Virus record (IMG/VR): IMGVR_UViG_2778261203_000006
Location: 1 to 14,909 of that record
DNA: 14,909 nt
Strand: one strand, 5' to 3'
Source of the DNA: a virus
Taxonomy: Duplodnaviria; Heunggongvirae; Uroviricota; Caudoviricetes
Position numbers and translations under genes: made by a program. Below, piece after piece: positions 1 through 14,909 of this stretch. Position 1 is the first letter of the stretch. Each line of letters starts with the position of its first letter. The notes beneath the pieces are model-generated. The model had not been told where the DNA came from, did no database searches, and saw only the letters and a list, made by a program, of their open reading frames with translations.

Positions 1-88
1 CGTCTGCGTTTCTCCGGTCCTAAGACATCAATCATCTGCTCTCCAATGACTAGTCTAAAAACTAGTATTAAGACTATCACTTATTTAA

Positions 89-517
89 GTGATATTGGTT
101 GTCTGGAGATTCATGGGGCCAGTCTACCTGTCATGGGCTGTTAATCATTACCGTGATAACGCCATCGCCTACAAAGAGCAGCGCGATAAAGCCACGTACA
201 TCATCGCTGACATGCAGAAGCGTCAACGTGATGTAGCAGAACTCGACGCCAGATACACAAAGGAGCTTGCTGATGCTAACGCGACTATCGAAAGTATTCG
301 TGCTGATGTTTCTGCTGGTCGTAAGTGGCTGCGCGTCAAAGCAGTCTGTCCGGACATGCATAAAACCACCGCCGCCTCCGGCGTGGATGATGGCGCCAGC
401 CCCAGACTTACTGACACCGCTCAACGGGATTATTTCGTTCTCAGAGAGCGCATCGAAACCATAACTAACCAATTGAATGGCCTGCAAGAGTATGTGAGAT
501 CACAGTGTTCATATTAG
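89..517 (+). CDS. Rz-like inner-membrane spanin (i-spanin), N-terminus replaced or truncated; possibly non-functional
   Basis: Product from [13 protein letters not shown] onward matches, from memory, phage lambda Rz (periplasmic coiled-coil part, C-terminal ...QCSY-like end). GTG start directly after an in-frame TAA at 86-88. The first ~12 residues ([12 protein letters not shown]) are not a convincing transmembrane helix, unlike lambda Rz. Confidence 0.75.
273..464 (+). CDS. Rz1-like outer-membrane lipoprotein spanin (o-spanin), embedded in the +1 frame of Rz
   Basis: ATG at 273 with AGGAG at 261-265. Hydrophobic signal ending in lipobox-like LVVSGC, then a proline-rich stretch ([15 protein letters not shown]) and TPLNGIIS, as in lambda Rz1. 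Fully nested in the Rz gene in another frame, the classic embedded-spanin arrangement. Confidence 0.75.
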
Positions 518-555
518 AAAAGTCTTATCATAAGATTTTTGTATATGGATGCATT

Positions 556-930
556 ATGTCTCAATACGCGCGCGCCGCTTTAATTGCTTATTATTTGGTT
601 GCTGATAATTCAATATCCCCGCGTGATGCATGGGATGCTGCTGTCGCTGAGGTTACAGAAAGCGAATCGGCAAGAAAGAAGGGATGCCCAAGGGCAACGT
701 TTCTCGCTCTGGCGGATAGCGGTTATCTGAAGAATGTAAAACCACATCATGGGGAGAAAAAGATCGGTAAGTTGTACCAAAGGGCAATTGAAGTTGCGAA
801 TCTGATTCTTGATTTACCCGGAATTAGCAAAGCTGAGCTAGTTGATAAAACTTGCTATAAAGACAGGCAAGGGTCTTATGACATTGCTCTAACTCTCGCT
901 CAGCACGGATTACTCCAGCGTCCTCAATAA
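556..930 (+). CDS. Hypothetical protein (about 124 aa from ATG 556; a GTG at 505 would give 141 aa), family not recognised
   Basis: Open frame with phage-like codon usage directly downstream of Rz, followed by an intrinsic terminator. No motif I can name. Start codon choice uncertain. Confidence 0.5.
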   Translation: MSQYARAALIAYYLVADNSISPRDAWDAAVAEVTESESARKKGCPRATFLALADSGYLKNVKPHHGEKKIGKLYQRAIEVANLILDLPGISKAELVDKTCYKDRQGSYDIALTLAQHGLLQRPQ

Positions 931-947
931 GATATTAAGTGATTTAT

Positions 948-972
948 GGCCTCGCTTTTAGCGGGGCCTTTT
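948..972 (+). terminator. Rho-independent terminator
   Basis: GGCCTCGC-TTTTA-GCGGGGCC hairpin (7 of 8 pairs, one G-T wobble) followed by TTTT, 18 nt after the stop of the 556-930 gene. Confidence 0.6.
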
Positions 973-1374
973 CACATCTGAATTTCAACGCGCATCTCAG
1001 CGCACAATAACCACCTGACCATTTGGAATGAGTCGTTGAAGATACCTGCAGAGTAGACAGAAAAACCAGCAGAATAAACAACAGAGTAACGAATTAGCTA
1101 GCAGGAATGATTGGCCATCAACTACAGCAGTTCCGATTTGATGGCCACAAAAAAGTTAGTTCAGATCGGCAACGTAGTTGGTAGCTTCGAGATTAGTGAT
1201 ACTAAATTCTGACGCCAAAATACGAGCAAGCTCTTCTTTCGAGCTTGCTGTGCGGTTTTGATTAGACCAGGCGATCAAGTAAAAACCATTGCTCTTCGCA
1301 AGCATGATTTGTATTGCATTGATAGTTATGTAGTAACTGTCCAAGAATAAATTACCTCAGTGTTAGGAAAAGTA

Positions 1375-1926
1375 ATGGCACTCACCGACAAGCAAGAAAT
1401 GTTCTGTCGCGAGTACCTCATCGATTTAAACGCCACGCAAGCGGCTATTCGGGCGGGGTACAGCGCAAAGACAGCTAACCGTACCGCATCCGAAAACTTG
1501 TCAAAACCTGACATCAAGTTAAGAATCGCCGAACTGAAAGCGCAACGCAATGATCTTGTTGGTATTAATGCAGAATATGTACTTAATCGCCTTCTTGAAA
1601 TCGACCAGATGGATGTGCTCGACATTCTCCTGCAAAACGGTGAGCTAAAACCCATTAAAGACTGGCCTAAGGTATGGCGCACAACGCTATCAGGAATGGA
1701 TGTCGTGGAGATGGTATCCGCAGATAGCGCCGCACTTCTGAAGAAAATCAAATGGCCTGATAAGGTTAAAAACCTTGAGTTACTTGGGCGCCATGTTTCT
1801 GTTCAGGCGTTTAAAGACAACGTCAAAAATGAAGTGACTGGCGCTGATGGAGGACCAGTCAGAACAGAAATTACCAACTTAACGCCGGAGCAGGCTGCAG
1901 AGGCGTATAGAAAAATGATGGGCTAA
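1375..1926 (+). CDS. Terminase small subunit
   Basis: Product begins [30 protein letters not shown], the N-terminal pattern I associate with phage terminase small subunits. AGGAAA ribosome-binding site at 1365-1370. Stop lies 2 nt before the terminase large subunit start. The track ORF starts at GTG 1360; ATG 1375 preferred. Confidence 0.8.
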
Positions 1927-1928
1927 GT

Positions 1929-3551
1929 ATGCCGTTACCATTCCCCTTCGATTTTAAACATCCTGATTACCAGATGGTTTTTGAATGGCGGATGGAACGC
2001 CTACAGCGCATTCGCCAGAATCCTGAAATATTGCCTGCACTAAAACAGTTTTACCGAACCAATCCGGCTCAGTTCATCATCGACTGGGGCATGACAACGG
2101 ACCCGCGTAATATTGATTATGGCCTGCCGGTGACCATTCCGTTTTTACTCTTCCCTAAGCAGGAGGAGTGGATCCACTGGATTATGGAACGCTGGAGCAA
2201 TCGGGAGAATGGTATTACCGAAAAATCCCGTGAAATGGGGCTCAGTTGGACCGCGATCGGACTGGCATGCTCGCTTTGTCTCTTCAACAAAGAAATGGTT
2301 ATCGGTTTTGGCTCCCGTAAAGAGGAATACGTCGACAGCACTGGTGACCCGAAAGCATTGTTCTGGAAGGCGCGCAAGTTCGTGGAAACGCTACCTGTAG
2401 AGTTTCGCGGTTCGTGGAGTGAGAAGAAGCACGCGCCATATATGCGTGTTGAGTTTCCTGAAACTGGTGCCGTTATCAAAGGCGAGGCTGGCGATAATAT
2501 TGGTCGTGGTGACCGTACCACGCTTTATCTGGTTGATGAGGCTGCATTCCTTCAGCGTCCTCTGCTGATTGATGCGGCGTTGTCACAAACGACGCGTTGC
2601 CGTATCGACCTGAGTTCAGTTAACGGCATGGCTAACCCGTTCGCTCAGAAGCGTCATGGCGGGAAGATACCGGTATTCACATTCCACTGGCGGGATGATC
2701 CTCGCAAGGATGAAGAGTGGTATCGCAGGGAATGCGAGAAAATCGATAATCCGGTGGTGGTGGCACAGGAACTTGATCTGAACTACAGCGCATCAGCGGA
2801 AGGCGTTCTGATTCCATCCGAATGGGTACAGGCTGCCGTTGATGCGCATATCAAACTGGGTATCCAGCCAACAGGCAAACGACTTGGCGCGATGGATGTC
2901 GCCGACGAAGGCAGGGACAAAAATGCCTTTTCCACCCGTCATGGCTTCCTCCTGGAAAATGTGCGGGAATGGTCCGGTGTGGGCAGCGACATTTATCAGT
3001 CCGTCGAGAAGGTTTTCGGCTTTTGCGAACAGGACAACCTCGAAGAGTTTCGCTTTGACGAGGACGGGCTGGGCGCTGGCGTTCGCGGCGATGCACGCGC
3101 TATCAACGAACTGCGTAACGCTGCGCGTCGACCGTCAATACTTGCCACACCGTTTCGAGGTAGTGGCGCGGTATTTGATCCGGATGATGAAGCTGTTCGC
3201 GGGGACAACGGGCAAGCCGCACGTCTGAACAAGGACTTCTTCGCTAACGCCAAAGCCCAGAGCTGGTGGCGGTTACGTAAACTTTTTCAGAATACCTGGC
3301 GCGCCGTGGTTGAAGGTATGGCTTACAACCCGGACGAAATCATCTCAATCAGCAGTAGCATGGCACTCAAAGATAAACTCATCATCGAGCTTTCGCAGCC
3401 GACCTATTCCATTAATGGTGTGGGAAAAATCGTTATTGATAAACAGCCTGATGGAACCCGATCGCCAAACCTTGCCGACTCGGTGATGATCAACTATGCC
3501 CCAATGAATTCAGCCCTGAACATCTGGGAGCTGCTAGGGAGACAGGCCTGA
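1929..3551 (+). CDS. Terminase large subunit (ATPase/nuclease)
   Basis: 540 aa directly after the small subunit. Deviant Walker-A-like [11 protein letters not shown] and Walker-B-like [10 protein letters not shown]. Stop overlaps the next gene start (ATGA). Confidence 0.85.
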
Positions 3552-4312
3552 TGGCACGAAACAAACAAGCCCTGCGGCGAACTGCGCAGGCCACAGCTGA
3601 TGGTTATGAGAATTTTATTGCCCGCGTAGGGATACAGACGCCTAACCAGCACTCAGCATCGACCTACCGGGCTAACTTCACCAGCCGCAACCGCATGCTG
3701 GTGGAATGGTCCTATCGTTCGTCCTGGATCATCGGCGAAGCGGTCGACGCTATCCCGGACGATATGACCCGGAAAGGCATTCGCATCACTTCGGAGATTG
3801 ACGCCAAAGACCGTGGCACCCTGGAAGCGCAGCTGGATGAGTTGCAGATCTGGGATGCGCTGAACGACGTGCTGAAATGGTCGCGCCTCTACGGCGGCGC
3901 GGTCGGCTTCATCATGATCGAGGGGCAGGCACCAATGACCCCGCTGCGGCTCGAAACCATTGGAGAAGGCAAGTTTAAGGGCATTCTCCCGCTCGACCGC
4001 TGGATGATTAACCCGGTCCTGACCCGCCGCATTAAAGAGATGGGGCCGGATCTCGGCAAACCTGAGTTTTACGACGTGGTGACCACTGCCACGGGCATTC
4101 CAGCCTGGCGCATCCATCACAGTCGCCTGATTCGCTTCGACGGGGTGACGCTGCCATTCCAGCAGAAGATGACCGAAAACGAATGGGGAATGTCGGTTGT
4201 AGAGCGTATCTGGGATCGGCTTACTGCGTTCGACAGCGCCACTGTCGGCGCGGCGCAGCTGGTCTACAAAGCGCATTTGCGTACCTACAGCGTGGAGAAG
4301 CTACCCATGTAG
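3551..4312 (+). pseudogene. Portal protein, N-terminal fragment (253 aa; intact portals are much longer)
   Basis: Sits immediately after the terminase large subunit with start/stop overlap, the usual portal position. Length is about half of a normal portal. Similarity to portal families is from memory, not a search. Downstream head genes are missing. Confidence 0.55.
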
Positions 4313-4324
4313 TGAGGGATAAAG

Positions 4325-5448
4325 ATGCCGACTCTTGATGTAACAGATGTGCTTTTTGACCCCGATTTTTGCAACTTCAATTTGTGGGTAACACGCCGAG
4401 TGCAAACGGTTGATGAGGACGGGACGGGAACGGTCAGGGAATTGAGCTAAGTGATTTCAAAGTCACCTTTACGATCGACTGGTTCAACATCAGCAGCGCG
4501 TCCCGGGTAGGGACTATCAAAATTTATAACCTCTCGGCAGATACTGTGAACCGAATCACCGGGCAGGAATTTTCGAAAGTGCGTCTGATTGCCGGTTACG
4601 ACGGTGTCGCGCCAGAGGTGTCAGCAAGCGACGTAGGGACCGTGCGGGAAGTTGACGCGGCGGACGTGGGCCAGAGAGATGGCCGCAACTACGGACTGAT
4701 TTTCAGCGGTGAAATTCGCTACTCGGTCACAGGAAAAGACAGTCCGGTTGATACCTACGTCCTGATTCAGGCAGCAGATACTGATCTGGCTTTTGCCACC
4801 AGTATAACCTCACAGACGCTGGCTGCCGGTTACACGGTCGCTGATGTGAACCGTGCGCTGATGAAAGACTTCGAAGCCAAAGGCGCGACCGAAGGCCTGA
4901 CGCCTGAAATGCCTGCTACCGTATTCCCTCGAGGGCGGGTGCTGTTCGGCATGACACGGCATCTTATGGATAACGTGGCCGGACAATGTGGCGCAACATG
5001 GCAATTCGTGGACGGTCAACGCCAGATGGTGGCGAATAACGAATATGTTCATGAAGCGATTGTGCTCAACAGCGCTACCGGGCTTATTGGCATGCCGCAG
5101 CAGACTATCGGTAACGGCGTAAACGTCCGCGCGCTTATTAATCCGAACATCCGGGTTAACGGGCTCATTCAACTGGATCAGGCTTCAGTGTATCGTACCG
5201 CGTTGTCGAACAACGATATCGCGATGGCCGGTGGGCAGATCACCGACCAGAACACGGACGGAAATATTACGCTAAGCGGCACCACATCGCAGCCTGCCAG
5301 CATCGCAACGGATGGCGTTTATATTGTGCGTGGGATTATGTACACTGGCGACACAAGGGGGCAGGCGTGGTACATGGATATGATGTGTGAAGCACGTGGC
5401 GCGGCTGATCTACTTTCGTCCTCAGCGCAGCAAAGGATTTATTCATGA
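4325..5448 (+). pseudogene. Phage structural (tail/baseplate-region) gene, frameshifted or 5'-disrupted; family not recognised
   Basis: ATG 4325 with GAGGG ribosome-binding site opens a 41-codon frame that stops at 4448-4450. The long frame ending at 5448 is open from 4417 (after TGATGA at 4411-4416) but has no ATG until the GTG at 4546. The two frames overlap at 4417-4447, implying a -1 frameshift within one gene. Confidence 0.45.
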
Positions 5449-5792
5449 AGCGTATGAAGTTAGTTTTGACAATTTCGTTATTATTTTCTTGTTCAGCAGC
5501 TTTTGCTGATTTGCAATGCGGCGGATATCTACTTCATGCAGCTGATAACGGTTGGACAAAAATCAACGGTGAGCAGGTAACATCACAGAAGATTACGTTT
5601 CTTGGTAAGAAAGATGACTGGGACAACGTTAAAACTAACATGGGCCTGATGCCTTCTCGCGATGGCAACAATTACGGCTTTGAGTTTGTGAAGCGTAACG
5701 GAAAAGCTTTCCTGAACGTCCAGCTTCTGCAGAACAGCATGGATGCGCCTAAAATCATCGGATCATTCCCTTGTAAAAAGGCGTTACGCTAA
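5445..5792 (+). CDS. Small secreted protein (115 aa) with N-terminal signal peptide; candidate prophage cargo (moron)
   Basis: MKRMKLVLTISLLFSCSAAFA|DLQ: positively charged N-terminus, hydrophobic core, AxA cleavage motif (a weak lipobox LFSC is also possible). ATG overlaps the stop of the upstream gene (ATGA). Appears AT-richer by eye than flanking genes. Confidence 0.6.
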   Translation: MKRMKLVLTISLLFSCSAAFADLQCGGYLLHAADNGWTKINGEQVTSQKITFLGKKDDWDNVKTNMGLMPSRDGNNYGFEFVKRNGKAFLNVQLLQNSMDAPKIIGSFPCKKALR

Positions 5793-5829
5793 AGTTTGAT
5801 GTCAATCTTCCGAGATGAGCGCTTTAAGG

Positions 5830-5858
5830 TTGACGAGATATTGTTCAAAGTTCACAAT
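5830..5858 (+). promoter_or_regulatory. Candidate sigma70 promoter for the two-gene cassette
   Basis: TTGACG (5830-5835), 17-nt spacer, CACAAT (5853-5858), about 30 nt upstream of ATG 5888. The -10 element matches consensus at only 4 of 6 positions. Confidence 0.3.
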
Positions 5859-5887
5859 CACAATCCCTTTAGTAAGAGAAATAATCC

Positions 5888-6661
5888 ATGGCGGCAGGCA
5901 TCCCATTAGAAAAAGCGCAAAAATATATTGAACAATTCAATGCGCTTCTATTGGATAGGGAAAGTTTAGATCCCTTCACTGAAAAGAAAATTCGAGAGGA
6001 ACTTTCTGTCTCTCCAACGCCTGCTACCAACATTGCACTATCTTATCTGGATGCAATAACCGGAAAGATTGAAAGCGCGTTACGTTATCTCAGGATAAGC
6101 CTAGAAGTAAACGATGTAACGTTGGCAATGCACTATCATCACATTTTAATTAATACATTTAGCTATAATGAACTCAAGGATGTCTATGTCCCGCTGGCAA
6201 AGAAGTATCGGACAAAACTCTTTAGTCACAACGCATACAGTTGGGCGTACCGTTGCGGCGAGCGTGAACAGTTAAAATTTTATATGGAAGAGCACATTAA
6301 GCTTCTTTCTGAATCAGAAGGCAGGAGTAATGCTATGAAGCACAAAGAAGAACTCCTTGCAGAAATGGATAATTTCTATAGCGCCACACAGTGCTCGAAG
6401 GAACAGTTCCAGACCTTAGCATCCATAATCTGGGGCTTGCTAAGTGAATACAAGGCTACGACAGGTTTCGTTCAGCTTAGTGGAAGCGGTTGCTATGTTG
6501 TTGATATTAAAAATCTTGAGCCTAAAACTATTGCCAAAATGAACTTCGACTTGGCTGATAGAGTCTGCGCTGAATCTAAACTGGATGATTGTTCCCTGTT
6601 AGCTAGATTTACCTCTCCGCGTCAGTTGCATACGGGGGTGAGCTACCATGTCGGTAACTAG
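5888..6661 (+). CDS. Hypothetical 257-aa protein, upstream partner of a HEPN-like protein; unrecognised family
   Basis: ATG with AAGAGA ribosome-binding site 8 nt upstream. Appears AT-rich. Last codons overlap the start of the next gene. No catalytic or nucleotide-binding motif recognised by eye. Confidence 0.6.
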   Translation: MAAGIPLEKAQKYIEQFNALLLDRESLDPFTEKKIREELSVSPTPATNIALSYLDAITGKIESALRYLRISLEVNDVTLAMHYHHILINTFSYNELKDVYVPLAKKYRTKLFSHNAYSWAYRCGEREQLKFYMEEHIKLLSESEGRSNAMKHKEELLAEMDNFYSATQCSKEQFQTLASIIWGLLSEYKATTGFVQLSGSGCYVVDIKNLEPKTIAKMNFDLADRVCAESKLDDCSLLARFTSPRQLHTGVSYHVGN

Positions 6662-7043
6662 CAATCAGATTCTCGATACCGCTCGATTATGTCTGTCTGA
6701 AAATATTGAGAGTGGATTTCGAAGCGCTATCTCAAGGGCGTATTACAGTATGTTACATGAGTCTATTAGCTCACTTACTGCCATACCGCATTTTACCCAT
6801 GAGCATCACAAAAATACTGTGGGTTATATGTCAACGCCCTCAGAGTGCAAATCAGAGCCATACCCGACAAATACACTGAAATCCCTAGCTTTCGTACTTC
6901 GCCAGTGGCGGGATGCTAGAAATGAAGCTGACTATGATCTGACGAATGTGACTGTTTCGAAAGAGATGGGACAGGATGCAATCGAGGCTGCTGAACTCTA
7001 TTTTGAGCGCTGGGAACAGCTAAAGTCTGCTAGAGTTTCATGA
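6648..7043 (+). CDS. HEPN-like small protein (131 aa), candidate RNase toxin or effector
   Basis: Residues 29-37 SRAYYSMLH (codons 6732-6758) form an R-x6-H arrangement on a predicted helix, resembling the HEPN Rx4-6H motif. ATG lies inside the last codons of the upstream gene (ATGTCGGTAACTAG). A strong terminator follows. Confidence 0.55.
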   Translation: MSVTSNQILDTARLCLSENIESGFRSAISRAYYSMLHESISSLTAIPHFTHEHHKNTVGYMSTPSECKSEPYPTNTLKSLAFVLRQWRDARNEADYDLTNVTVSKEMGQDAIEAAELYFERWEQLKSARVS

Positions 7044-7060
7044 ATAAAATTAACGTTATC

Positions 7061-7084
7061 AAACCCGCTTCGGCGGGTTTTTTG
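7061..7084 (+). terminator. Rho-independent terminator closing the two-gene cassette
   Basis: AAACCCGC-TTCG-GCGGGTTT perfect 8-bp stem followed by a T-run, 18 nt after the stop at 7043. Confidence 0.75.
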
Positions 7085-7102
7085 CTTTCTGGAGCCTACT
7101 AA

Positions 7103-7855
7103 ATGGCAGTATCTGACCAGACCCGCAGCGGCGACCTTGCCGAAACATTCAAATCTGAACGGGAAACAACAAAGAACCAGATCCGTGTCGCCTTGCCTGG
7201 CATTATTCAGTCATTCGATCCTGATGCGGTGACGGCAGTTGTGCAGCCTGCTATCCGTTCGGTTGAAAAGGATAATGACGGCAACCGCATTACCAAAAAT
7301 TACCCATTGCTGGTGGATGTGCCAGTGGTATTCCCGCGCGGCGGAGGATGTACGCTAACGTTCCCAGTTAAAGCCGGTGATGAATGTTTGGTGATTTTTG
7401 CCGATCGTTGTATTGATTTCTGGTGGCAGAGTGGCGGGATACAGGAGTCGGTCGATGACAGAATGCATGATTTATCGGATGCGTTTTGTATTGTCGGTCC
7501 CCAGTCGCAGGCAAGGAAGATTAGCGGTATTAATACCAGTGCCACACAGTTGCGTAGTGATGACGGCAGCACCTATTTTGAGCTTAATCCTGATACCAGG
7601 AAAATTAAAATTGTCGCTCCAGGTGGTCTTGATGTGGTTGCCCCTCTGGCTGATTTTTCTGAGAAAGTAACCATTCATGGCCTGTTAACCTGGATGGGGG
7701 GCATGGTGGGGTCTGTGGTTTCTGGTGTGGCTTCAAAAATCACTGGTGCTGTTGAGTTTTTGGGGAGCGTGAAGGCTAATGGCAAGCCAATCGATGATAC
7801 ACACACTCATGGTGGTGTTCAGCGTGGTGGAAGCAGTACCGACGGGGTAAACTGA
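7103..7855 (+). CDS. Baseplate central spike/hub protein (gpV / Mu gp45-like)
   Basis: GGAG ribosome-binding site. 250 aa with a glycine-rich C-terminus (THTHGGVQRGGSSTDG) typical of spike proteins. First gene of a run of translationally coupled baseplate genes. Confidence 0.6.
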   Translation: MAVSDQTRSGDLAETFKSERETTKNQIRVALPGIIQSFDPDAVTAVVQPAIRSVEKDNDGNRITKNYPLLVDVPVVFPRGGGCTLTFPVKAGDECLVIFADRCIDFWWQSGGIQESVDDRMHDLSDAFCIVGPQSQARKISGINTSATQLRSDDGSTYFELNPDTRKIKIVAPGGLDVVAPLADFSEKVTIHGLLTWMGGMVGSVVSGVASKITGAVEFLGSVKANGKPIDDTHTHGGVQRGGSSTDGVN

Positions 7856-8208
7856 TGCGATACAGACGTGAAGACGCCGATGGCGATTACACCTTTGGCA
7901 GCGGTGATGACACCTGGCTGATTAACTCGCCTGAGGCCGTAGCGCAGGCTGTGAAAACGCGATTCGAATTGTGGTATGGGCAATGGTTTCTTGATACCAC
8001 AGAGGGAACACCGTGGATCCAGTCCGTGCTGGGCAGGCAAAAACCAGAAACTTACAACCTGGCGATCCGTAAGCGCATCCTCGAAACGCAGGGCGTTAAA
8101 TCAATCCTCTCTTTCAATACGACGGTGGATACCACGACCCGACGTGTCATGTTTTCCGCTGAAATCGACACTCTCTATGGAATAACGACTGTTACATCGG
8201 AGGCGTAA
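7855..8208 (+). CDS. Small baseplate protein (gpW / gp25 / Mu gp46-like position)
   Basis: 117 aa. TGATG overlap with the upstream gene and TAATG overlap with the downstream baseplate J gene. Assigned by position and size; family not confirmed. Confidence 0.5.
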   Translation: MRYRREDADGDYTFGSGDDTWLINSPEAVAQAVKTRFELWYGQWFLDTTEGTPWIQSVLGRQKPETYNLAIRKRILETQGVKSILSFNTTVDTTTRRVMFSAEIDTLYGITTVTSEA

Positions 8209-9407
8209 TGGCTCTGAACCTTGATTCTCTCGGTTTATCTGCAAAGGTAACCGCGGAGGGGATCAGTGCGCCTGATTATCAGACGATACTCAGCACCCTG
8301 ATTAGCTATTTTCAGCAGATTTATGGTAGTGATGCCTACCTCGAACCGGACAGTAAAGACGGTCAGATGGTGGCTCTGATGGCGCTGGCGATTCATGATG
8401 CCAATAATATGGCGATAACTGTCTACAACTGTTTTTCACCAGCAACCGGCTATGGGGCCGCACTGACCAGTAACGTGAAAATAAATGGTATTTCACGTAA
8501 AGGCGCGACGAATTCTACGGTTGATTTGCTTCTTACAGGAACTGCCGGAACAACCATCATTAATGGCAGCGTGAAAGACAGTAATAATGTGATATGGCGT
8601 TTGCCTGCTTCAGTGGTGGTCGGCGTGGATGGTACAGTGATGGTGACCGCAACATGTTCCGTCAGTGGTGCAGTGGCGGCGCTGGCTGGAACTATCACTG
8701 AAATTAATACGCCAACCCGTGGCTGGGTTTCGGTAACCAATCCTGCTGCAGCTACTGTGGGCACTCCGGCAGAAACTGACGCGGAGTTACGTATCCGCCA
8801 GTCGCAAAGTGTTGCATTGCCATCAATAACCCCATTTGAAGCACTGGATGGTGCTGTTTCTAATGTTACCGGTGTAACCCGCCACAAACTCTATGAAAAC
8901 GATACTGGTTCGGAGGACGGTAACGGGTTACCACCACACTCTGTTGCTGTAATTGTGGATGGCGGTGATGTGACGGATATTGCTCAGGCTATCAGAGGGA
9001 ATAAAGGTCAGGGGACAGCCACTCACGGTACAACATCCGTTACGGTTCCGGATAAATACGGCAATCCCCATGTAATCAAATTCTCGCGTTCCAGTGATGT
9101 ACCTGTTTATGCCCGGATTAAATTAAAAGTTTTTACGGGTTATACCTCACAGATAGGGCAGCAGATCCAGCAGGCTATTTCCGACTATATCAATAGTCTG
9201 ACGATTGGTGATTCAGTCCTTTTAAGTCGCATTTACTCACCGGCCAATCTTGGCGTGGTGAGTGGCGGGAATGCACGCTATTACGATATTCAGGAACTGA
9301 CGATTGGGAAATCCCCGGGGGCTTTGTCGTCATCAAACATTGATATCAGATACAACGAATCTGCGTCCTGTACCCCGGAAAATATCGTTATAACGGTGGA
9401 GTCATGA
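8208..9407 (+). CDS. Baseplate J-like protein
   Basis: 399 aa containing ETDAELRIRQ, which resembles the ESDxxLR motif of baseplate J proteins. Translationally coupled on both sides. Confidence 0.75.
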   Translation: MALNLDSLGLSAKVTAEGISAPDYQTILSTLISYFQQIYGSDAYLEPDSKDGQMVALMALAIHDANNMAITVYNCFSPATGYGAALTSNVKINGISRKGATNSTVDLLLTGTAGTTIINGSVKDSNNVIWRLPASVVVGVDGTVMVTATCSVSGAVAALAGTITEINTPTRGWVSVTNPAAATVGTPAETDAELRIRQSQSVALPSITPFEALDGAVSNVTGVTRHKLYENDTGSEDGNGLPPHSVAVIVDGGDVTDIAQAIRGNKGQGTATHGTTSVTVPDKYGNPHVIKFSRSSDVPVYARIKLKVFTGYTSQIGQQIQQAISDYINSLTIGDSVLLSRIYSPANLGVVSGGNARYYDIQELTIGKSPGALSSSNIDIRYNESASCTPENIVITVES

Positions 9408-10084
9408 GCAAATACACCGAACTAATCACGAACTACCACGCCACCAAACCTAAATTTCTTGCGCATGTTGATCTGATGACCCGGCCGCTTATTGATGTTG
9501 CGGCTGCCACCAGAGGGCTGATTACTGCATTTGATATTGACTCTGCGGTTGGTGTGCAACTTGACATTCTGGGATTGTGGATCGGACGTAGCCGTGTTGT
9601 CAGCCAGCCTATCTCAGGTGTCTATTTCAGCTGGGATACCGACGGGCTTGGATATGATCAGGGGGTATGGCAGGGGCCATATGATCCTGATTCTGGATAC
9701 ATGTATCTCAGCGATGAAACTTATCGTGTCATTCTTAAAGCGAAGATTGCGATTAATAACTGGGACGGACGGAATGATTCGCTTCCGGCAATTCTTGACG
9801 CGGCAACAGCAGGATCCGGGCTGCGAATGCAGATTGTCGATAACCAGGACATGACGATATCGGTCTGGGTCTTTCCTGATACTGATATTTCAGATGTATC
9901 GCGTGAGTTAATTGCTGCAATTAAACAGGGATATCTCACAGTAAAAGCCGCCGGGGTTTGGGCGGGTGGCATTGAAACACCTTCGGTGGAAACTCCATCG
10001 GAAGGTTCAAAATTTTTTGGTTTTGATATGGATAACGAATTCATCAGTGGTTTTGATGTAGGGGCATGGGGAGTATTACTCTGA
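9404..10084 (+). CDS. Tail/baseplate protein (P2 gpI / Mu gp48 / YmfQ-like position)
   Basis: 226 aa immediately between baseplate J and the tail-fibre gene. Start overlaps the upstream stop (ATGA); stop overlaps the tail-fibre start (TGATG). Confidence 0.6.
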   Translation: MSKYTELITNYHATKPKFLAHVDLMTRPLIDVAAATRGLITAFDIDSAVGVQLDILGLWIGRSRVVSQPISGVYFSWDTDGLGYDQGVWQGPYDPDSGYMYLSDETYRVILKAKIAINNWDGRNDSLPAILDAATAGSGLRMQIVDNQDMTISVWVFPDTDISDVSRELIAAIKQGYLTVKAAGVWAGGIETPSVETPSEGSKFFGFDMDNEFISGFDVGAWGVLL

Positions 10085-10731
10085 TGGCGAAAAATGACTT
10101 TAAAGCGTTTGCAACTGATCGGAATGCCAATGTTATGTCGCAGGAGGAATGGGAAGCGTTGCCTGCGCTTTTATCCGGATTTACAGCAGGGAAAGCATCC
10201 AGTGCGCAAGTCAATAAGGTTATTCGGCAGGCCAGCTTTATTGCTGCAGCTCTGGCCCAGTTTGTAAGTGACAAAACGCAACGGGATGTGCTTGATAATG
10301 GTGATCTGCCCGGTTTTGTTGAATTGCTGGGATCGGGGTTTGCTGTTGAATACCTGAGCCGCAAGAATCCGTTTGGTGATATCAAATCGGATGGCACGGT
10401 GAAAACAGCTCTCGAAAACCTTGGTTTAAGAGCAAGCGGGCAGTACACCGATAATTTGTTATTTACAGGTCCTGATGGTCTTAAGATTCAGGTGTTTCGC
10501 CGGACGCTCGCAAATTTGACTACTGTCGGTGTAGTAAATTCTGTGCCAGTGACTTTCCCTGTCCCGTTCCCTGTTAATTGCTGGGGCGTTTTTTCTACCA
10601 AATTAACATGGGTTCAGATAACTAACTCATGCGAGTGGGTAAGCAATACAGGATTTACCGCTCAGGTCATGATGAATATTGCTGTAAATACAAACACCTC
10701 AGACGCTATGTTTTTAGCTATAGGATATTAA
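10084..10731 (+). CDS. Tail fibre protein: constant N-terminal part (to about 10422) plus the currently expressed variable C-terminal part
   Basis: ATG 10084 with GGGGAG ribosome-binding site (track ORF starts at 10066). N-terminus MAKNDFKAFATDRNANVMSQEEWEALPALL...ASFIAAALAQFV is a tail-fibre-like N-terminus. A crossover site lies inside the gene at 10409-10434. Confidence 0.75.
   Translation: MAKNDFKAFATDRNANVMSQEEWEALPALLSGFTAGKASSAQVNKVIRQASFIAAALAQFVSDKTQRDVLDNGDLPGFVELLGSGFAVEYLSRKNPFGDIKSDGTVKTALENLGLRASGQYTDNLLFTGPDGLKIQVFRRTLANLTTVGVVNSVPVTFPVPFPVNCWGVFSTKLTWVQITNSCEWVSNTGFTAQVMMNIAVNTNTSDAMFLAIGY
10409..10434 (+). other. Crossover site (left) of the Pin-type invertible segment
   Basis: CTCTCGAAAACC-TT-GGTTTAAGAGCA: imperfect 12-2-12 palindrome with the AAACC-NN-GGTTT core typical of Hin/Gin/Cin/Pin sites. 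Lies inside the tail-fibre reading frame. Confidence 0.6.
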
Positions 10732-10732
10732 T

Positions 10733-11173
10733 ATGAATCGTTTTGTGTTCAGTCCATCTGAGTCCCGTTTTTATGCCATCGAGTGGCAGGTTGATTATGT
10801 TGATAATAATTGTTGGCCACATGATGCCATTAACGTTAGTGACAGCATTTATTATGAGTTTTCCGGCACTCCCCCTACAGGTAAGCAACTTATAACTTTA
10901 AATAACATGCCAGCATGGGGTGATATTCCTCCACCTACACGAGAAGAATTAATTGTCGTTGCTGATGTGGAGAAGCAAAAAAGAATAGATTTAGCCAATG
11001 ATTACATGAACGGTAAGCAATGGCCTGGTAAAGCAGCTATTGGTCGTCTGAAAGGTGAGGAACTGGCACAATATAATTTGTGGCTGGATTATCTGGACGC
11101 ACTGGAGCTGGTCGATACCGCCAGTGCGCCAGATATTGAATGGCCTACGCCTCCGGCAGTTCAGGCCAGATGA
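10733..11173 (+). CDS. Tail fibre assembly protein (chaperone for the currently expressed fibre)
   Basis: 146 aa directly after the fibre gene. C-terminus ...ASAPDIEWPTPPAVQAR resembles the conserved tail-fibre-assembly C-terminal motif. Confidence 0.75.
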   Translation: MNRFVFSPSESRFYAIEWQVDYVDNNCWPHDAINVSDSIYYEFSGTPPTGKQLITLNNMPAWGDIPPPTREELIVVADVEKQKRIDLANDYMNGKQWPGKAAIGRLKGEELAQYNLWLDYLDALELVDTASAPDIEWPTPPAVQAR

Positions 11174-11750
11174 CATCCGGCGCGGTGCTGGTATCTGTTG
11201 CCGTCACCGCGTCAATGTAATCCAGCACAGCGTTAAGGCTGGTTGTTTCTGCCTGCGTCAGTTTACGTCCGGCCTGCAATTTCAGCTGAATCAGACTGAT
11301 TGAAGCCATTGCAGTATCAATCAGTGACTGGCGCTGTGCTTCTGCTGCATCTACTGCGGCGCTATGCTGTGCTTCGGTATCCGTCACCCATTTCTCACCA
11401 TCCCATTTATCGTATGGCGTTAACGGGGCGATAGTGGTTGTATTATCAGGGTAATCACCCGGAGCTGTGATTTCTTTTGATTCTCCTGTTTCGGTGCTAA
11501 AGACGATTTCACCGCGATGGTCTGGCACATATTCCCATGAGTTAAAATCTACAGATCGGCAGATTGCATAACCAGCTTTGTATGTGCCAGGGGCATCTAA
11601 ACAGGAATATGCAGGGATACCGACACCAACGGCAAGATATTCAGTTGATGTGGAAATATATTCCCGTGTCTCACTGTCATAGTTATAAACGGTAATCTCT
11701 CCTGCCTTTGTGGCAATAAATTTATTATTTAAGATGGCGTTATACATCAT
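11145..11750 (-). CDS. Tail fibre assembly protein (chaperone for the alternative, inverted fibre)
   Basis: 201 aa on the - strand, convergent with and overlapping the 3' end of the + strand assembly gene by 29 bp. C-terminus ...TSTAPDVIWPELPEA has the same motif. Start overlaps the stop of the upstream - strand fibre segment. Confidence 0.75.
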   Translation of the reverse strand: MMYNAILNNKFIATKAGEITVYNYDSETREYISTSTEYLAVGVGIPAYSCLDAPGTYKAGYAICRSVDFNSWEYVPDHRGEIVFSTETGESKEITAPGDYPDNTTTIAPLTPYDKWDGEKWVTDTEAQHSAAVDAAEAQRQSLIDTAMASISLIQLKLQAGRKLTQAETTSLNAVLDYIDAVTATDTSTAPDVIWPELPEA

Positions 11751-12283
11751 GCAGCCCTCACAATGTAATTAAATGAAATATTACGTGGGCGTGTCTCTGC
11801 TGCACCGACAATACTGGTACTCAACCCCGTTGCCGTTCGTTTGTTATTTTTATTTCCTTCAATCAGACAGTTGTAATCATCATTACCAATTAACGAATTG
11901 GTGGCATCAATACTGTCCGGGGACAAGGCATTAGTTGTGGAACTTAAAGTCAGCATCTCGTCTGAACTTGGAAGATTTTTTAATGGTGTTTCATTGCGTG
12001 AAATACCCGCGTAAAAAAAGGACTCATGTCTGTGAGCTTCAAAAGAGTCATCCTGAAGACTTAACAAGGCTCGCCCCGCATCCACCCCGCGCCCATCATC
12101 CCATCCACGAATAAATTCACCGCGTAAATCAGGCAATTTATTTGTCGGGTAAGCCTTTGCCAGTTCCGGGTATTCTTCAGCAGAAAAAGCTGCTCCGTTG
12201 CATTTTAGCCAGCCTGTTGGCGGAGTGGCTGAGGGCCACGGAACAGGGACACCAACAGGTAATGCAGAGCCTTCTCCCAAACC
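11747..12283 (-). CDS. Alternative tail-fibre variable C-terminal segment (no own start; expressed only after inversion)
   Basis: - strand frame encoding ...GEGSALPVGVPVPWPSATPP...NISFNYIVRAA, which resembles the C-terminal receptor-binding region of lambda-like side tail fibres (PWPS motif, NYIVR ending). The frame continues in register through the right crossover site. Confidence 0.65.
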   Translation of the reverse strand, partial: GLGEGSALPVGVPVPWPSATPPTGWLKCNGAAFSAEEYPELAKAYPTNKLPDLRGEFIRGWDDGRGVDAGRALLSLQDDSFEAHRHESFFYAGISRNETPLKNLPSSDEMLTLSSTTNALSPDSIDATNSLIGNDDYNCLIEGNKNNKRTATGLSTSIVGAAETRPRNISFNYIVRAA

Positions 12284-12297
12284 AACATTTATGAAAA
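12272..12297 (+). other. Crossover site (right) of the Pin-type invertible segment
   Basis: TTCTCCCAAACC-AA-CATTTATGAAAA. The inner arm matches the left site at 9 of 12 positions when inverted; the central dinucleotide is AA on the + strand, i.e. TT on the - strand, the same as the left site in inverted orientation. Confidence 0.55.
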
Positions 12298-12351
12298 TGC
12301 AGAAATAACGAGCAAATGGCATCATTCCTGCTTTTGTCAGGGAGATCTACC

Positions 12352-12906
12352 ATGCTTATTGGCTATGTACGTGTGTCAACAAATGACCAGAACACAGATC
12401 TACAACGTAATGCGCTGAACTGTGCAGGATGCGAGCTGATTTTTGAAGACAAGATAAGCGGTACAAAGTCCGAAAGGCCGGGACTGAAAAAACTGCTCAG
12501 GACATTATCGGCAGGTGACACTCTGGTTGTCTGGAAACTGGATCGGCTGGGGCGCAGTATGCGGCATCTTGTCGTGCTGGTGGAGGAGTTGCGCGAACGA
12601 GGCATCAACTTTCGTAGTCTGACGGATTCAATTGATACCAGCACACCAATGGGACGCTTTTTCTTTCATGTGATGGGTGCCCTGGCTGAAATGGAGCGTG
12701 AACTGATTGTTGAACGAACAAAAGCTGGACTGGAAGCTGCTCGCGCACAGGGACGAATTGGTGGACGTCGCCCCAAACTTACACCAGAACAATGGGAGCA
12801 GGCCGGACGATTAATTGCAGCAGGAATTCCTCGCCAGAAGGTAGCGATCATCTATGATATTGGTGTATCGACTTTGTATAAGAGGTTTCCAGCCAGGATT
12901 ATATAA
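12352..12906 (+). CDS. pin: Serine-recombinase DNA invertase (Hin/Gin/Cin/Pin family)
   Basis: Product MLIGYVRVSTNDQNTDLQ...: N-terminal resolvase/invertase catalytic domain with the active-site serine in YVRVSTNDQ, and a C-terminal helix-turn-helix. 184 aa from ATG 12352 (track ORF starts earlier at 12316). Confidence 0.9.
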   Translation: MLIGYVRVSTNDQNTDLQRNALNCAGCELIFEDKISGTKSERPGLKKLLRTLSAGDTLVVWKLDRLGRSMRHLVVLVEELRERGINFRSLTDSIDTSTPMGRFFFHVMGALAEMERELIVERTKAGLEAARAQGRIGGRRPKLTPEQWEQAGRLIAAGIPRQKVAIIYDIGVSTLYKRFPARII

Positions 12907-12944
12907 AACCGCAGACACGCCGTATGCAAGAACGTGCTGCGGTT
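12907..12944 (+). other. Stable hairpin immediately downstream of pin (not a canonical intrinsic terminator: no T-run)
   Basis: AACCGCAG ... CTGCGGTT perfect 8-bp inverted repeat, extendable to about 12 bp with one bulge, starting 1 nt after the pin stop. Confidence 0.35.
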
Positions 12945-13742
12945 GGCTGGTGAACTTTCGATAGTGCGAGTATTGAATGATTTTCAGCCGTTGCCGATTT
13001 TACTATGTTTTCAGTAGAACACTTAGACAAAACTGAGGCGCACAAAGCTTTGCACTGGATTGCAAGACTTTGTGCTATTCGATAGTTTAAGGTCGCTCAC
13101 TCTACCTTTTCATCAAGCCAGTCCGCCCACCACAGCATCATTTCTCTGCGCTTAATGTAGCGGATGCCTCACTATCACATAGTGATGGTTCATTACTGCT
13201 TTGTAGAATGGATAGAGAACTGAGGATAAAAAGATATCCCAAAACCCCAAAATCTCATCTTTAGGATTTGCAGAAAGGGAGGCGTGAACAGATACCTGCG
13301 CATGAAGACGGAACTAGTCCAGATGTGATATTTGTGGTGATCACATACATCATCAACGATGCTCGTTATGGTGAGTTTGATGACTACCCGCTGAAGTGAA
13401 AATAGTGTTGTGTACCAAATTGCGTACCAAACTAAAATCACAAATCATGAAACCCTTGTTCATGGCGGTTCTCAGGGGTATTGCGCGTAATCGTGAAACA
13501 AAAAGGTAGATTGTTGCTTACCGTCATTCATCATTAGGTTAAATCCGTTATTTCTGCTGTCTGCCAGAGTATCAAATATCACCGTGCTAATCAGCTTTAG
13601 CGCCACAATTTGGCAGCGAGTGGCAACAGATCATGTCAGATAAAAATGAGAGGGTAGTCACATTTTCTTGCACTTTATTCCAGCCAGTTCATAAGTATTT
13701 CCGTAAAAAGAACAGCTATTTGAAACTCCTGAGGGTTTGCTG

Positions 13743-14909
13743 TTGAAACGCCGTCTTATTATTGCTGCTTCTTTGTTCGTTTTTAACTTATCGTCTGGTT
13801 TTGCGGCGGAAAACATTCCTTTTTCACCTCAGTCTCCAGAGATTCATGCCGGGTCCTGGGTATTGATGGATTACACCACCGGTCAGATCCTCACCGCGGG
13901 AAATGAGCATCAACAGCGCAATCCCGCCAGCCTGACAAAGCTGATGACGGGTTATGTCGTGGATCGCGCTATCGATAGTCATCGCATTACGCCAGACGAT
14001 ATTGTCACCGTGGGGCGCGATGCGTGGGCGAAAGATAATCCGGTGTTTGTCGGTTCTTCACTGATGTTTTTGAAAGAGGGCGATCGCGTATCGGTACGTG
14101 ATTTAAGCCGTGGTTTAATTGTGGATTCCGGAAATGACGCTTGTGTTGCACTGGCTGACTATATTGCCGGTGGGCAACGGCAGTTTGTTGAAATGATGAA
14201 CAACTATGCCGAGAAGCTGCATCTCAAGGATACGCATTTTGAAACAGTGCATGGCCTGGATGCACCTGGCCAGCATAGCTCGGCTTATGATTTAGCTGTA
14301 CTTTCTCGCGCTATCATCCACGGCGAGCCCGAGTTTTATCATATGTACAGTGAGAAAAGTCTCACCTGGAACGGTATCACCCAGCAAAACCGTAACGGGT
14401 TGTTGTGGGATAAAACCATGAATGTTGACGGTCTGAAAACGGGTCATACTTCTGGTGCCGGGTTTAATCTCATTGCTTCGGCTGTAGATGGGCAGCGTCG
14501 TCTCATTGCAGTGGTAATGGGGGCTGACAGTGCAAAAGGTCGTGAGGAAGAGGCAAGAAAATTACTACGTTGGGGGCAACAAAACTTTACTACGGTGCAA
14601 ATTTTGCACCGTGGGAAAAAGGTCGGAACGGAACGCATCTGGTATGGCGATAAAGAAAATATCGACCTGGGAACGGAACAAGAGTTCTGGATGGTGCTAC
14701 CGAAAGCCGAAATTCCACATATCAAAGCCAAATATACCCTTGATGGTAAAGAACTCACCGCGCCAATTAGCGCCCATCAGCGGGTAGGGGAAATTGAACT
14801 TTACGACCGTGATAAACAGGTGGCGCACTGGCCGCTGGTTACCCTGGAATCTGTCGGGGAAGGCGGCATGTTTTCCCGCCTGAGTGATTATTTCCACCAT
14901 AAGGCCTGA
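13743..14909 (+). CDS. dacD: D-alanyl-D-alanine carboxypeptidase (penicillin-binding protein 6b)
   Basis: Product has a signal peptide, the SxxK active-site motif (ASLTK) and SGN (DSGNDAC), and matches my memory of E. coli DacD. Likely TTG start at 13743 (MKRRLII..., 388 aa) with GAGGG 8 nt upstream; the track ORF starts at TTG 13737. Confidence 0.88.
   Translation: MKRRLIIAASLFVFNLSSGFAAENIPFSPQSPEIHAGSWVLMDYTTGQILTAGNEHQQRNPASLTKLMTGYVVDRAIDSHRITPDDIVTVGRDAWAKDNPVFVGSSLMFLKEGDRVSVRDLSRGLIVDSGNDACVALADYIAGGQRQFVEMMNNYAEKLHLKDTHFETVHGLDAPGQHSSAYDLAVLSRAIIHGEPEFYHMYSEKSLTWNGITQQNRNGLLWDKTMNVDGLKTGHTSGAGFNLIASAVDGQRRLIAVVMGADSAKGREEEARKLLRWGQQNFTTVQILHRGKKVGTERIWYGDKENIDLGTEQEFWMVLPKAEIPHIKAKYTLDGKELTAPISAHQRVGEIELYDRDKQVAHWPLVTLESVGEGGMFSRLSDYFHHKA

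Follow-up and report, generated by a model that had tools for sequence, protein, structure and literature searches.

Why does a temperate phage carry, in the tail operon and directly behind the baseplate hub gene, a small gene that appears to encode an exported protein? This question is raised by a stretch of 14,909 nucleotides (IMG/VR virus record IMGVR_UViG_2778261203_000006, positions 1 to 14,909; the whole stretch is called the window here), which encodes a 115-amino-acid protein at 5445 to 5792. The gene is referred to as sec, a name used here for this exported-protein gene. Its product appears to be a small periplasmic protein with a predicted beta-barrel fold, and the gene a long-standing accessory of one group of enterobacterial phages. 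We are highly confident of the identity, the export and the genomic status of the sec product taken jointly. The best explanation overall adds to the exported barrel and the accessory gene a binding role that bears on phage entry or on the envelope, and this fuller reading is proposed tentatively, at somewhat less than even confidence.

The sec gene and its export signal

The gene, its start signals and the two tail genes that flank it are as follows (window positions).

4423 to 5448, plus strand: truncated baseplate-hub gene, E217 gp41-like (blastn against the intact prophage L001; PF22759; phrog_196 'baseplate hub')
5433 to 5437, plus strand: Shine-Dalgarno-like AAGGA, 7 nucleotides before the sec ATG (read from the sequence)
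5445 to 5792, plus strand: sec coding sequence, 115 amino acids, stop codon included (open reading frame list, PHROG 3443, homologue clusters, ratio of nonsynonymous to synonymous substitution rates, dN/dS)
5445 to 5507, plus strand: predicted signal peptide, Sec-type (signal peptidase I), codons 1 to 21, ending AFA (rule-based family check, alignments)
5508 to 5789, plus strand: mature sec domain, 94 amino acids, predicted 8-stranded up-and-down beta-barrel
7103 to 7855, plus strand: baseplate spike gene with a PF18352 N-terminal domain and a GpV Apex motif, the fixed downstream boundary of the slot behind sec

The 115-codon reading frame at 5445 to 5792 had been picked out in an original prediction made from the DNA letters, and it stands. 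So does the overlap of its start with the stop of the upstream gene: the sec ATG (5445 to 5447) and the TGA (5446 to 5448) of the hub reading frame at 4546 to 5448 form an ATGA, with the AAGGA in front of it. This overlap bears out the proposed co-orientation and coupling of sec with the late tail genes. The upstream gene was correctly taken for a fragment of a structural gene. It has lost the first 13 codons of the hub, as judged from the homology to L001, which resumes at 4422, inside the hub gene, and its first usable start is a GTG at 4546. A search for a promoter or terminator belonging to sec itself found none, and no promoter-like site lies upstream of the gene.

The N-terminus of the window protein reads MKRMKLVLTISLLFSCSAAFA up to the predicted cleavage point and DLQCGG behind it, with basic residues, a hydrophobic core and AFA at positions -3 to -1. 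The same layout is found across the family, where 127 of the 130 full-length members have a hydrophobic core with small residues at -3 and -1, and 124 have Ala at -1 (a rule-based check, not SignalP). The predicted cleavage site usually lies three residues before the first cysteine of the barrel. By these rules the Sec signal peptide with an AxA site, the mature part of about 94 residues and the export to the cell envelope that had been proposed all hold, and the sec product is most likely a substrate of signal peptidase I, cleaved after AFA21.

The cysteine count had to be corrected. Three cysteines had been assigned to the mature part, which contains two, C25 (5517 to 5519) and C110 (5772 to 5774); the third, C16 (5490 to 5492), lies inside the signal peptide and is not conserved. 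Exactly two cysteines follow the cleavage point in 129 of the 130 full-length members, and C25 and C110 are invariant in an alignment reaching down to 21% identity. C16 ends a weak lipobox-like LFSC at residues 13 to 16. Under the rule that the signal peptide ends in [LVI][ASTVI][GAS]C, a lipobox-like motif is present in 10 of the 130 members and absent from 120, and in close relatives either the Cys is lost or the -1 residue falls outside [GAS] (Phe in P0004, Val in P0009), with the A-x-A site kept. The lipoprotein option of the original prediction is therefore unlikely, and the reading of LFSC16 as a lipobox was rejected, the Cys not being conserved; the window allele alone may be lipidated.

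Independent support for the export of the barrel comes from fusion variants. Twelve proteins of 285 to 300 amino acids, plus a 248-residue partial one, carry a sec-type barrel together with an LSGC lipoprotein signal and some 170 residues of helical domain. In the 292-amino-acid variant (L044 8001-8879; L045 4625-5503; L046 492-1370) the lipobox is LSGC and the barrel forms the C-terminal domain, and the contigs encoding the P0135 variant show the same slot after the hub. The helical N-terminal domain of the 292-residue variant (motifs DDCxTWK and YAAYHEYG) has no counterpart elsewhere in the databases and no fold relative that could be recognised.

Family, distribution and selection

The sec family is catalogued and uncharacterised, and is filed as a further exported phage accessory protein. 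The window protein matches PHROG 3443 (function unknown) at E 1.1e-53, residues 1-112 aligning with profile positions 1-112 of 115. Pfam and PADLOC gave no match, and NCBIfam a far sub-threshold chance match only; no named family, superinfection exclusion included, was obtained from these three sources, in which the presence of models for T4 Sp and Imm, Cor, Llp and P1 Sim was left unchecked. No paper on the family, and no homologue with known function, came up when the literature was searched by phage name, locus tag and accession.

A word-indexed search collected 404 homologue clusters, all from Enterobacterales or from unnamed metagenome contigs. The family is narrow, since an exhaustive profile search of 1.8 billion representatives returned only 64 at 50% identity. 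It is found only in SEN34/Brunovirus-like temperate myophages of Enterobacterales, the hosts of which range from insect and plant pathogens to gut bacteria. Among 5426 complete Escherichia coli genomes, at least 150 carry sec.

Pairwise dN/dS has a median of 0.09 (about 0.1) and gave no indication of positive selection, and between the window and locus L003 the C-terminal half of sec has a dN of 0 at a dS of 0.40. Together with the PHROG match and the homologue clusters, these values mark sec as a real, functional gene, under strong purifying selection. The database coding sequences of SEN34_20 from Salmonella phage SEN34 (L004 5001-5342) and of its counterpart in Klebsiella phage ST340-VIM1phi10.1 (L006 5001-5342) start at an internal ATG and are 77 amino acids long, so that the signal peptide and the first strands are cut off.

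Position between hub and spike

Comparison of 43 related loci (seven from E. coli genomes and from phages, 34 from genomes taken one per species from at least 20 genera, and L044 and L045) showed sec between hub and spike in all 35 loci in which both flanks could be detected, and directly after the hub in all but two of them (L030 and L038). In the remaining loci the hub or the spike is missing, some being contig ends or degraded remnants (L010, L013, L039). The distance from the end of sec to the spike gene varies from 35 bp to 4.1 kb. Four loci are free of cargo, and sec is present in all four; the other loci hold at least 20 unrelated gene families in the slot between sec and spike (37 loci). 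Among the families are PD-Lambda-1 (E 1e-82), a tRNA_anti-like OB-fold protein, a pair with a YafO toxin, and three different pairs of a 243-267-amino-acid protein with a relative of a 131-amino-acid protein that is encoded in the window.

Examples of the cargo slot: window 5793-7102; L037 7434-8660; L021 8346-9403; L008 7358-8095; L017 7483-8642; L044 8931-10117

As the variable cargo lies between sec and spike, the hotspot begins after sec. It is a swappable set of defence and toxin-antitoxin genes, and sec is not part of it. The gene had been placed at the start of an AT-rich cargo block, which is right as to base composition (G+C 42.5% in sec, 55% in the hub, 50% in the spike gene) and wrong as to position, sec being the fixed neighbour of the hub. 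As far as moron-type criteria go, the G+C of sec is below that of the spike gene in 37 of 37 loci, and sec is lacking in outgroup tails and in phage yong1. The idea of a sporadic moron is nevertheless not supported, given the lack of an own promoter and terminator, the fixed place between hub and spike, and the presence of sec in 20 of the 23 phage records whose hub is at least 47% identical.

The tail can evidently be built without sec in some relatives. Hafnia phage yong1, with a hub 78% identical, has no sec, and the slot holds unrelated cytoplasmic proteins; in Providencia phage PSTCR3 and Acinetobacter phage AbTJ the hub gene is followed directly by the spike gene. Furthermore, in the solved PB1-type baseplates of E217 and Pa193 the hub trimer grips the tip without an intermediary, and no such protein is needed (PMC10329688, PMC11456595). 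Because these three phages lack sec and the PB1-type hub contacts the tip directly, sec is read as an accessory gene and not as a part of the tail. Its product is probably not part of the virion and probably not needed for tail building. The gene would have been acquired by the enterobacterial clade and kept since.

Two occupants of the same position in other phages are unrelated. E217 gp42, encoded between the hub and tip genes and not mentioned in the E217 structure paper, was considered as a counterpart of sec; it shares the slot and is an unrelated 178-amino-acid protein without a signal peptide. Gp21 of Burkholderia phage Magia is a 123-amino-acid signal-peptide protein encoded on the minus strand in the hub-spike slot (L049 3957-4328). 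It was rejected as a homologue, as no homology to sec was found. Exported proteins may recur at this position.

Predicted fold

AlphaFold2, run with 27 sequences, modelled eight strands in meander order; the predicted local distance difference test (pLDDT) score has a mean of 83 and is about 90 for residues 22-112. The mature part is thus predicted to be an 8-stranded up-and-down beta-barrel. Only C25, G26, L90 and C110 are invariant throughout the family, and the lack of conserved catalytic-type residues suggests that the protein binds rather than catalyses. Along the chain, conserved loops (41-46, 69-75 and 96-102; entropy about 1.1 bits) alternate with variable regions (strand 2, loop 33-37 and loop 53-61; 1.65-2.2 bits). 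From the strand order of the model, the two sets of loops would lie at opposite ends of the barrel, and a disulfide C25-C110 would link the first and last strands.

A fold of this kind is not distinctive. The viral structure library BFVD gave no match at E <= 0.001 (best E 0.009), and a profile search of the PDB sequences gave none. Barrels of the avidin/streptavidin type are 3-11% identical to the sec product, which has no avidin Pfam match, and the type VI immunity barrel BtaiB (PDB 9jdd) is 13% identical. The resemblance of the predicted structure to avidins, and to the lysozyme inhibitors PliC and MliC discussed below, is generic and confined to the level of a very common fold.

Mosaic alleles

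The sec protein consists of a variable half, residues 22 to about 65, which differs between allele types, and a conserved half, residues 66-112. This is seen most clearly in L001 and L003, where identity is 98-99% for the hub, spike and J proteins and 100% for the C-terminal half of sec, as against 56% for the N-terminal half and 33% for the signal peptide. The difference between the halves points to a recombination breakpoint inside sec. Divergence as a whole is unremarkable, with a mean pairwise identity of 0.54 for the N-half, 0.72 for the C-half and 0.66 for the hub.

At least four N-half types recur across genera. The type HAADNGW...DDWDN is found in E. coli, Enterobacter, Shimwellia, Yersinia and Photorhabdus, and the type MTGDGMT...DGDY in E. 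coli, Klebsiella, Pantoea, Raoultella and Yersinia. Phages with hubs only 60-67% identical can share an N-half type at 71-78% identity. The G+C fraction of sec stays at 0.39-0.51 across loci (near 45%), as against 0.44-0.60 for the hub genes. The N-half therefore seems to comprise old allele types that are kept and exchanged by recombination, each under purifying selection.

N-half identity correlates best with that of the hub (Spearman 0.62) and hardly with that of the tape-measure protein (0.10). Co-evolution of sec with a phage partner was rejected as an explanation, since these correlations follow physical linkage and do not discriminate. In three genomes with two or three such prophages, the sec copies differ clearly. 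Identities to the window protein are 67%, 52% and 57% in Pantoea stewartii (L016, L035, L039), 64% and 48% in Apirhabdus (L027, L041), and 61% and 50% in Pseudescherichia vulneris (L026, L038), a sample too small to interpret.

Possible functions of the sec product

The preferred reading of the sec product, as an exported barrel that acts by binding, would run as follows. The gene would be translated as part of the late tail operon, and its product exported by the Sec pathway, cleaved by signal peptidase I after AFA21 and released as a soluble periplasmic protein, where it would fold into a small 8-stranded beta-barrel with one disulfide, C25-C110. The conserved loops 41-46, 69-75 and 96-102, all at one end of the barrel, would bind a partner that is itself conserved, and the opposite end together with strands 2 and 3, of which several old allele types exist, would set specificity. 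Bound in this way, the protein could act in the periplasm against the machinery by which related phages enter, either the ejected spike or the tape-measure protein, which carries an SLT transglycosylase domain in this phage group and is a plausible periplasmic target. An envelope factor needed by incoming related phages could be the target instead. Superinfection would thereby be excluded, or the infected cell protected. An exclusion-type function as such is a reasonable conjecture that could well be wrong.

Several points weigh against this reading. No characterised homologue speaks for any function. The signal peptide was judged by rules alone, the placement of the disulfide and of the loops follows from the strand order of a model, and the barrel fold is generic. 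Expression in the lysogen is not indicated, as no promoter-like site precedes sec; classical exclusion requires such expression, and a purely late protein fits exclusion less well. Furthermore, the dN/dS values speak of purifying selection and contain no arms-race signal, and the correlations of the N-half with hub and tape-measure protein are accounted for by linkage alone, with no sign of co-evolution with a phage target.

In a more specific form of the binding idea, the family would be a new class of periplasmic entry gates encoded within the baseplate operon, in which the conserved loop face binds the ejected spike or the SLT tape-measure protein of SEN34-like phages and the exchangeable N-half sets exclusion groups, shuffled by recombination between phages of many enterobacterial genera. 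We regard this as unlikely. In a still more unusual version of it, the barrel would mature in the periplasm and, once the cell has lysed, attach to the tail tip as a cap that confers specificity.

A periplasmic inhibitor of a peptidoglycan-cleaving enzyme, similar to PliC/MliC or Ivy, was considered as well. The conserved loops would plug an active site, which could be that of the transglycosylase domain in phage tape-measure proteins, of a host lytic transglycosylase or of a lysozyme. The sec product shares with PliC and MliC a size of about 90-100 residues, periplasmic export, an 8-stranded antiparallel barrel and a cysteine near each end of the barrel. The source label of the homologue P0118 begins 'C-type ly...' (only the beginning is readable), and the SLT domain of the tape-measure proteins would offer a substrate for inhibition. 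However, PliC and MliC are encoded by chromosomal housekeeping genes, whereas sec lies in a phage tail operon and has neither sequence or profile similarity nor the inhibitory loop motifs. Membership of the MliC/PliC family was rejected, as PF09864 was matched neither by the window protein nor by 30 members at E up to 10, and alignment of the mature profile with the MliC/PliC profile by hhalign gave a probability of 0.1%, the latter profile being narrow (effective number of sequences, Neff, 2.3) even with partial PDB sequences, which leaves room for a very remote link. Nothing that is shared by the whole family corresponds to the MliC loop motifs (SxSGAxY, and TKG after an aromatic run); DGNNY and KRNGK in the window protein stand at roughly comparable places, and neither is conserved across the family. 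In addition, relatives with SLT tape-measure proteins can lack sec. An inhibitor of this kind is improbable.

The sec product could also be a factor of lysogenic conversion or host fitness unrelated to phages, its barrel binding a small ligand or an envelope component in the manner of avidins or lipocalins. The gene is kept intact in degraded prophages such as that of the window, and its base composition is distinct and constant, as might be expected of such a factor. Against this stand the lack of an own promoter and the invariable position in the late tail operon, conversion genes being usually sporadic and independently transcribed. No single niche-specific benefit is evident for hosts that range from insect and plant pathogens to gut bacteria, and a barrel of 94 residues would have little room for a ligand cavity. 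We think it doubtful that sec serves the host in this way.

A late periplasmic helper of the phage's own cycle is less probable still. Such a helper might time lysis through holin, spanin or endolysin, or mask envelope debris for the progeny, and co-transcription and translational coupling with late genes, export to the compartment in which spanin and endolysin act, and conservation across the phage clade would suit it. Yet sec lies far from the lysis genes (the Rz/Rz1-like pair of the window is at 89-517), its allele types vary without an obvious lysis-protein partner, and the deposited genome of Hafnia phage yong1 does without it.

Least likely, and very improbable, is a tail or baseplate component or assembly factor with a hydrophobic N-terminus that is not a cleaved signal peptide: location between hub and spike and translational coupling to the hub favour it, but A-x-A-type sites occur family-wide in a presequence that is the least conserved part of the protein, the two invariant cysteines suit an oxidising compartment, a lipoprotein-fusion variant occupies the same slot, related tails lack sec, and hub and tip of PB1-like baseplates are in direct contact (PMC10329688, PMC11456595).

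The gene pair downstream of sec

The cargo of the window reads as a self-contained cassette of two genes and a terminator-like element.

5888 to 7043, plus strand: cargo pair, a 257-amino-acid gene and an overlapping 131-amino-acid HEPN-like gene; not part of the sec unit
7061 to 7080, plus strand: terminator-like hairpin with T run, closing the cargo cassette before the spike gene

The original prediction allowed sec to be either independent of this pair or functionally linked to it, and the former option is supported. The pair occurs in 27 of the 5426 E. coli genomes, at 98-100% identity irrespective of the sec allele that adjoins it, which argues that the two are independent; sec is found in at least 150 of the same genomes, and also with other cargo or none. 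In L003 a pair 100% identical to that of the window stands beside a sec allele only 70% identical, and the pair is absent from the 34 loci of other genera. Promoter-like sites at 5830-5885, upstream of the pair, are no more than shuffled sequence yields.

The 131-amino-acid protein has a weak match to PDB entries 9xbd and 9xbc, 'HEPN domain-containing protein' (E 0.002-0.007), and its relatives are paired with different partners of 243-267 amino acids in other phages. PADLOC gave no match for the pair. RefSeq leaves the 131-amino-acid gene unannotated in three of the E. coli genomes (L001 10204-10599; L002 7204-7599; L003 7087-7482), and the open reading frame is 99-100% conserved.

Prophage setting

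The window is E. coli-like chromosomal DNA with the remnant of a SEN34/Brunovirus-type temperate myophage, which ends beside a dacD-like penicillin-binding protein gene (13737-14909; from a reading of the translation). Positions 4422-10427 align by blastn to L001 7978-13982 at 97.8%. The intact tail order is tape-measure protein with SLT domain, 196-amino-acid baseplate protein, 100-amino-acid plug and 355-amino-acid hub, followed by sec, variable genes, spike, sheath initiator, baseplate J, a DUF2612 protein and fibres. Of the 5426 complete E. coli genomes, 396 (about 7%) contain a hub gene of this prophage group.

The prophage is a deletion remnant, as seen at 3551-4546. The portal gene is cut at about 4312, after some 253 of about 590 codons, and 126 nucleotides at 4302-4427 match a head gene of L001 that lies about 6 kb further upstream. 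The junction of portal, head gene and hub was found in none of the 5426 genomes.

At the start of the window, a 142-amino-acid reading frame at 89-517 with a 65-amino-acid frame nested at 267-464 in another frame, which has the lipoprotein-type start LLVVSGC, resembles an Rz/Rz1-type spanin pair. The tail-fibre end (10066-12906) looks like an invertible segment beside a Pin-like serine invertase (12316-12906), with forward fibre and assembly genes (10066-11173) facing reverse-strand assembly and fibre-tip genes (11145-12325). A quick scan of 10066-12906 for crossover repeats found none that were convincing.

Significance and comparison with known systems

Klebsiella, Salmonella, Yersinia, Photorhabdus and Pantoea are among the genera with related prophages, nearly all of which keep sec. 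This constancy in a common prophage group, together with the allele structure, is the main appeal of the gene. Whatever its function, sec marks the exact boundary of a defence and toxin-antitoxin hotspot that extends from sec to the spike gene, and the comparison corrects some database annotations that drop its signal peptide. If sec does control phage entry, the few periplasmic exclusion factors would gain a new protein family, and cross-resistance among temperate phages of clinically important Enterobacterales would become easier to predict.

Among characterised systems, the working model for sec is Spackle (Sp) of T4, a periplasmic superinfection-exclusion protein that inhibits the tail-spike lysozyme gp5. 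Sp, too, is small, phage-encoded and exported by the Sec pathway, and its periplasmic target is the tail-tip enzyme of an incoming phage. It differs in being helical, and in being expressed early by a lytic phage, and it shows no homology to the sec product, for which Pfam has no match.

Cor of phages phi80, N15 and HK022 and Llp of T5, which has a disulfide, are outer-membrane lipoproteins encoded beside tail or receptor-binding genes, and block FhuA. As small exported phage proteins in or beside tail clusters, they represent the type of role that was imagined in the original prediction. Unlike them, the sec family has no lipobox in 120 of 130 members, and only the rare 292-amino-acid fusion variants are lipoproteins; no sequence relationship of Cor or Llp with the sec product was detected.

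Gp15 of HK97 is an inner-membrane superinfection-exclusion moron encoded in the tail operon beside the tape-measure gene; it is separately expressed in the lysogen and sporadically distributed. It resembles sec in being an accessory, non-structural gene among tail genes, and has been linked to DNA entry. Whereas gp15 is an inner-membrane protein of sporadic occurrence, the sec product is predicted to be a soluble barrel, encoded at a fixed position across a phage clade.

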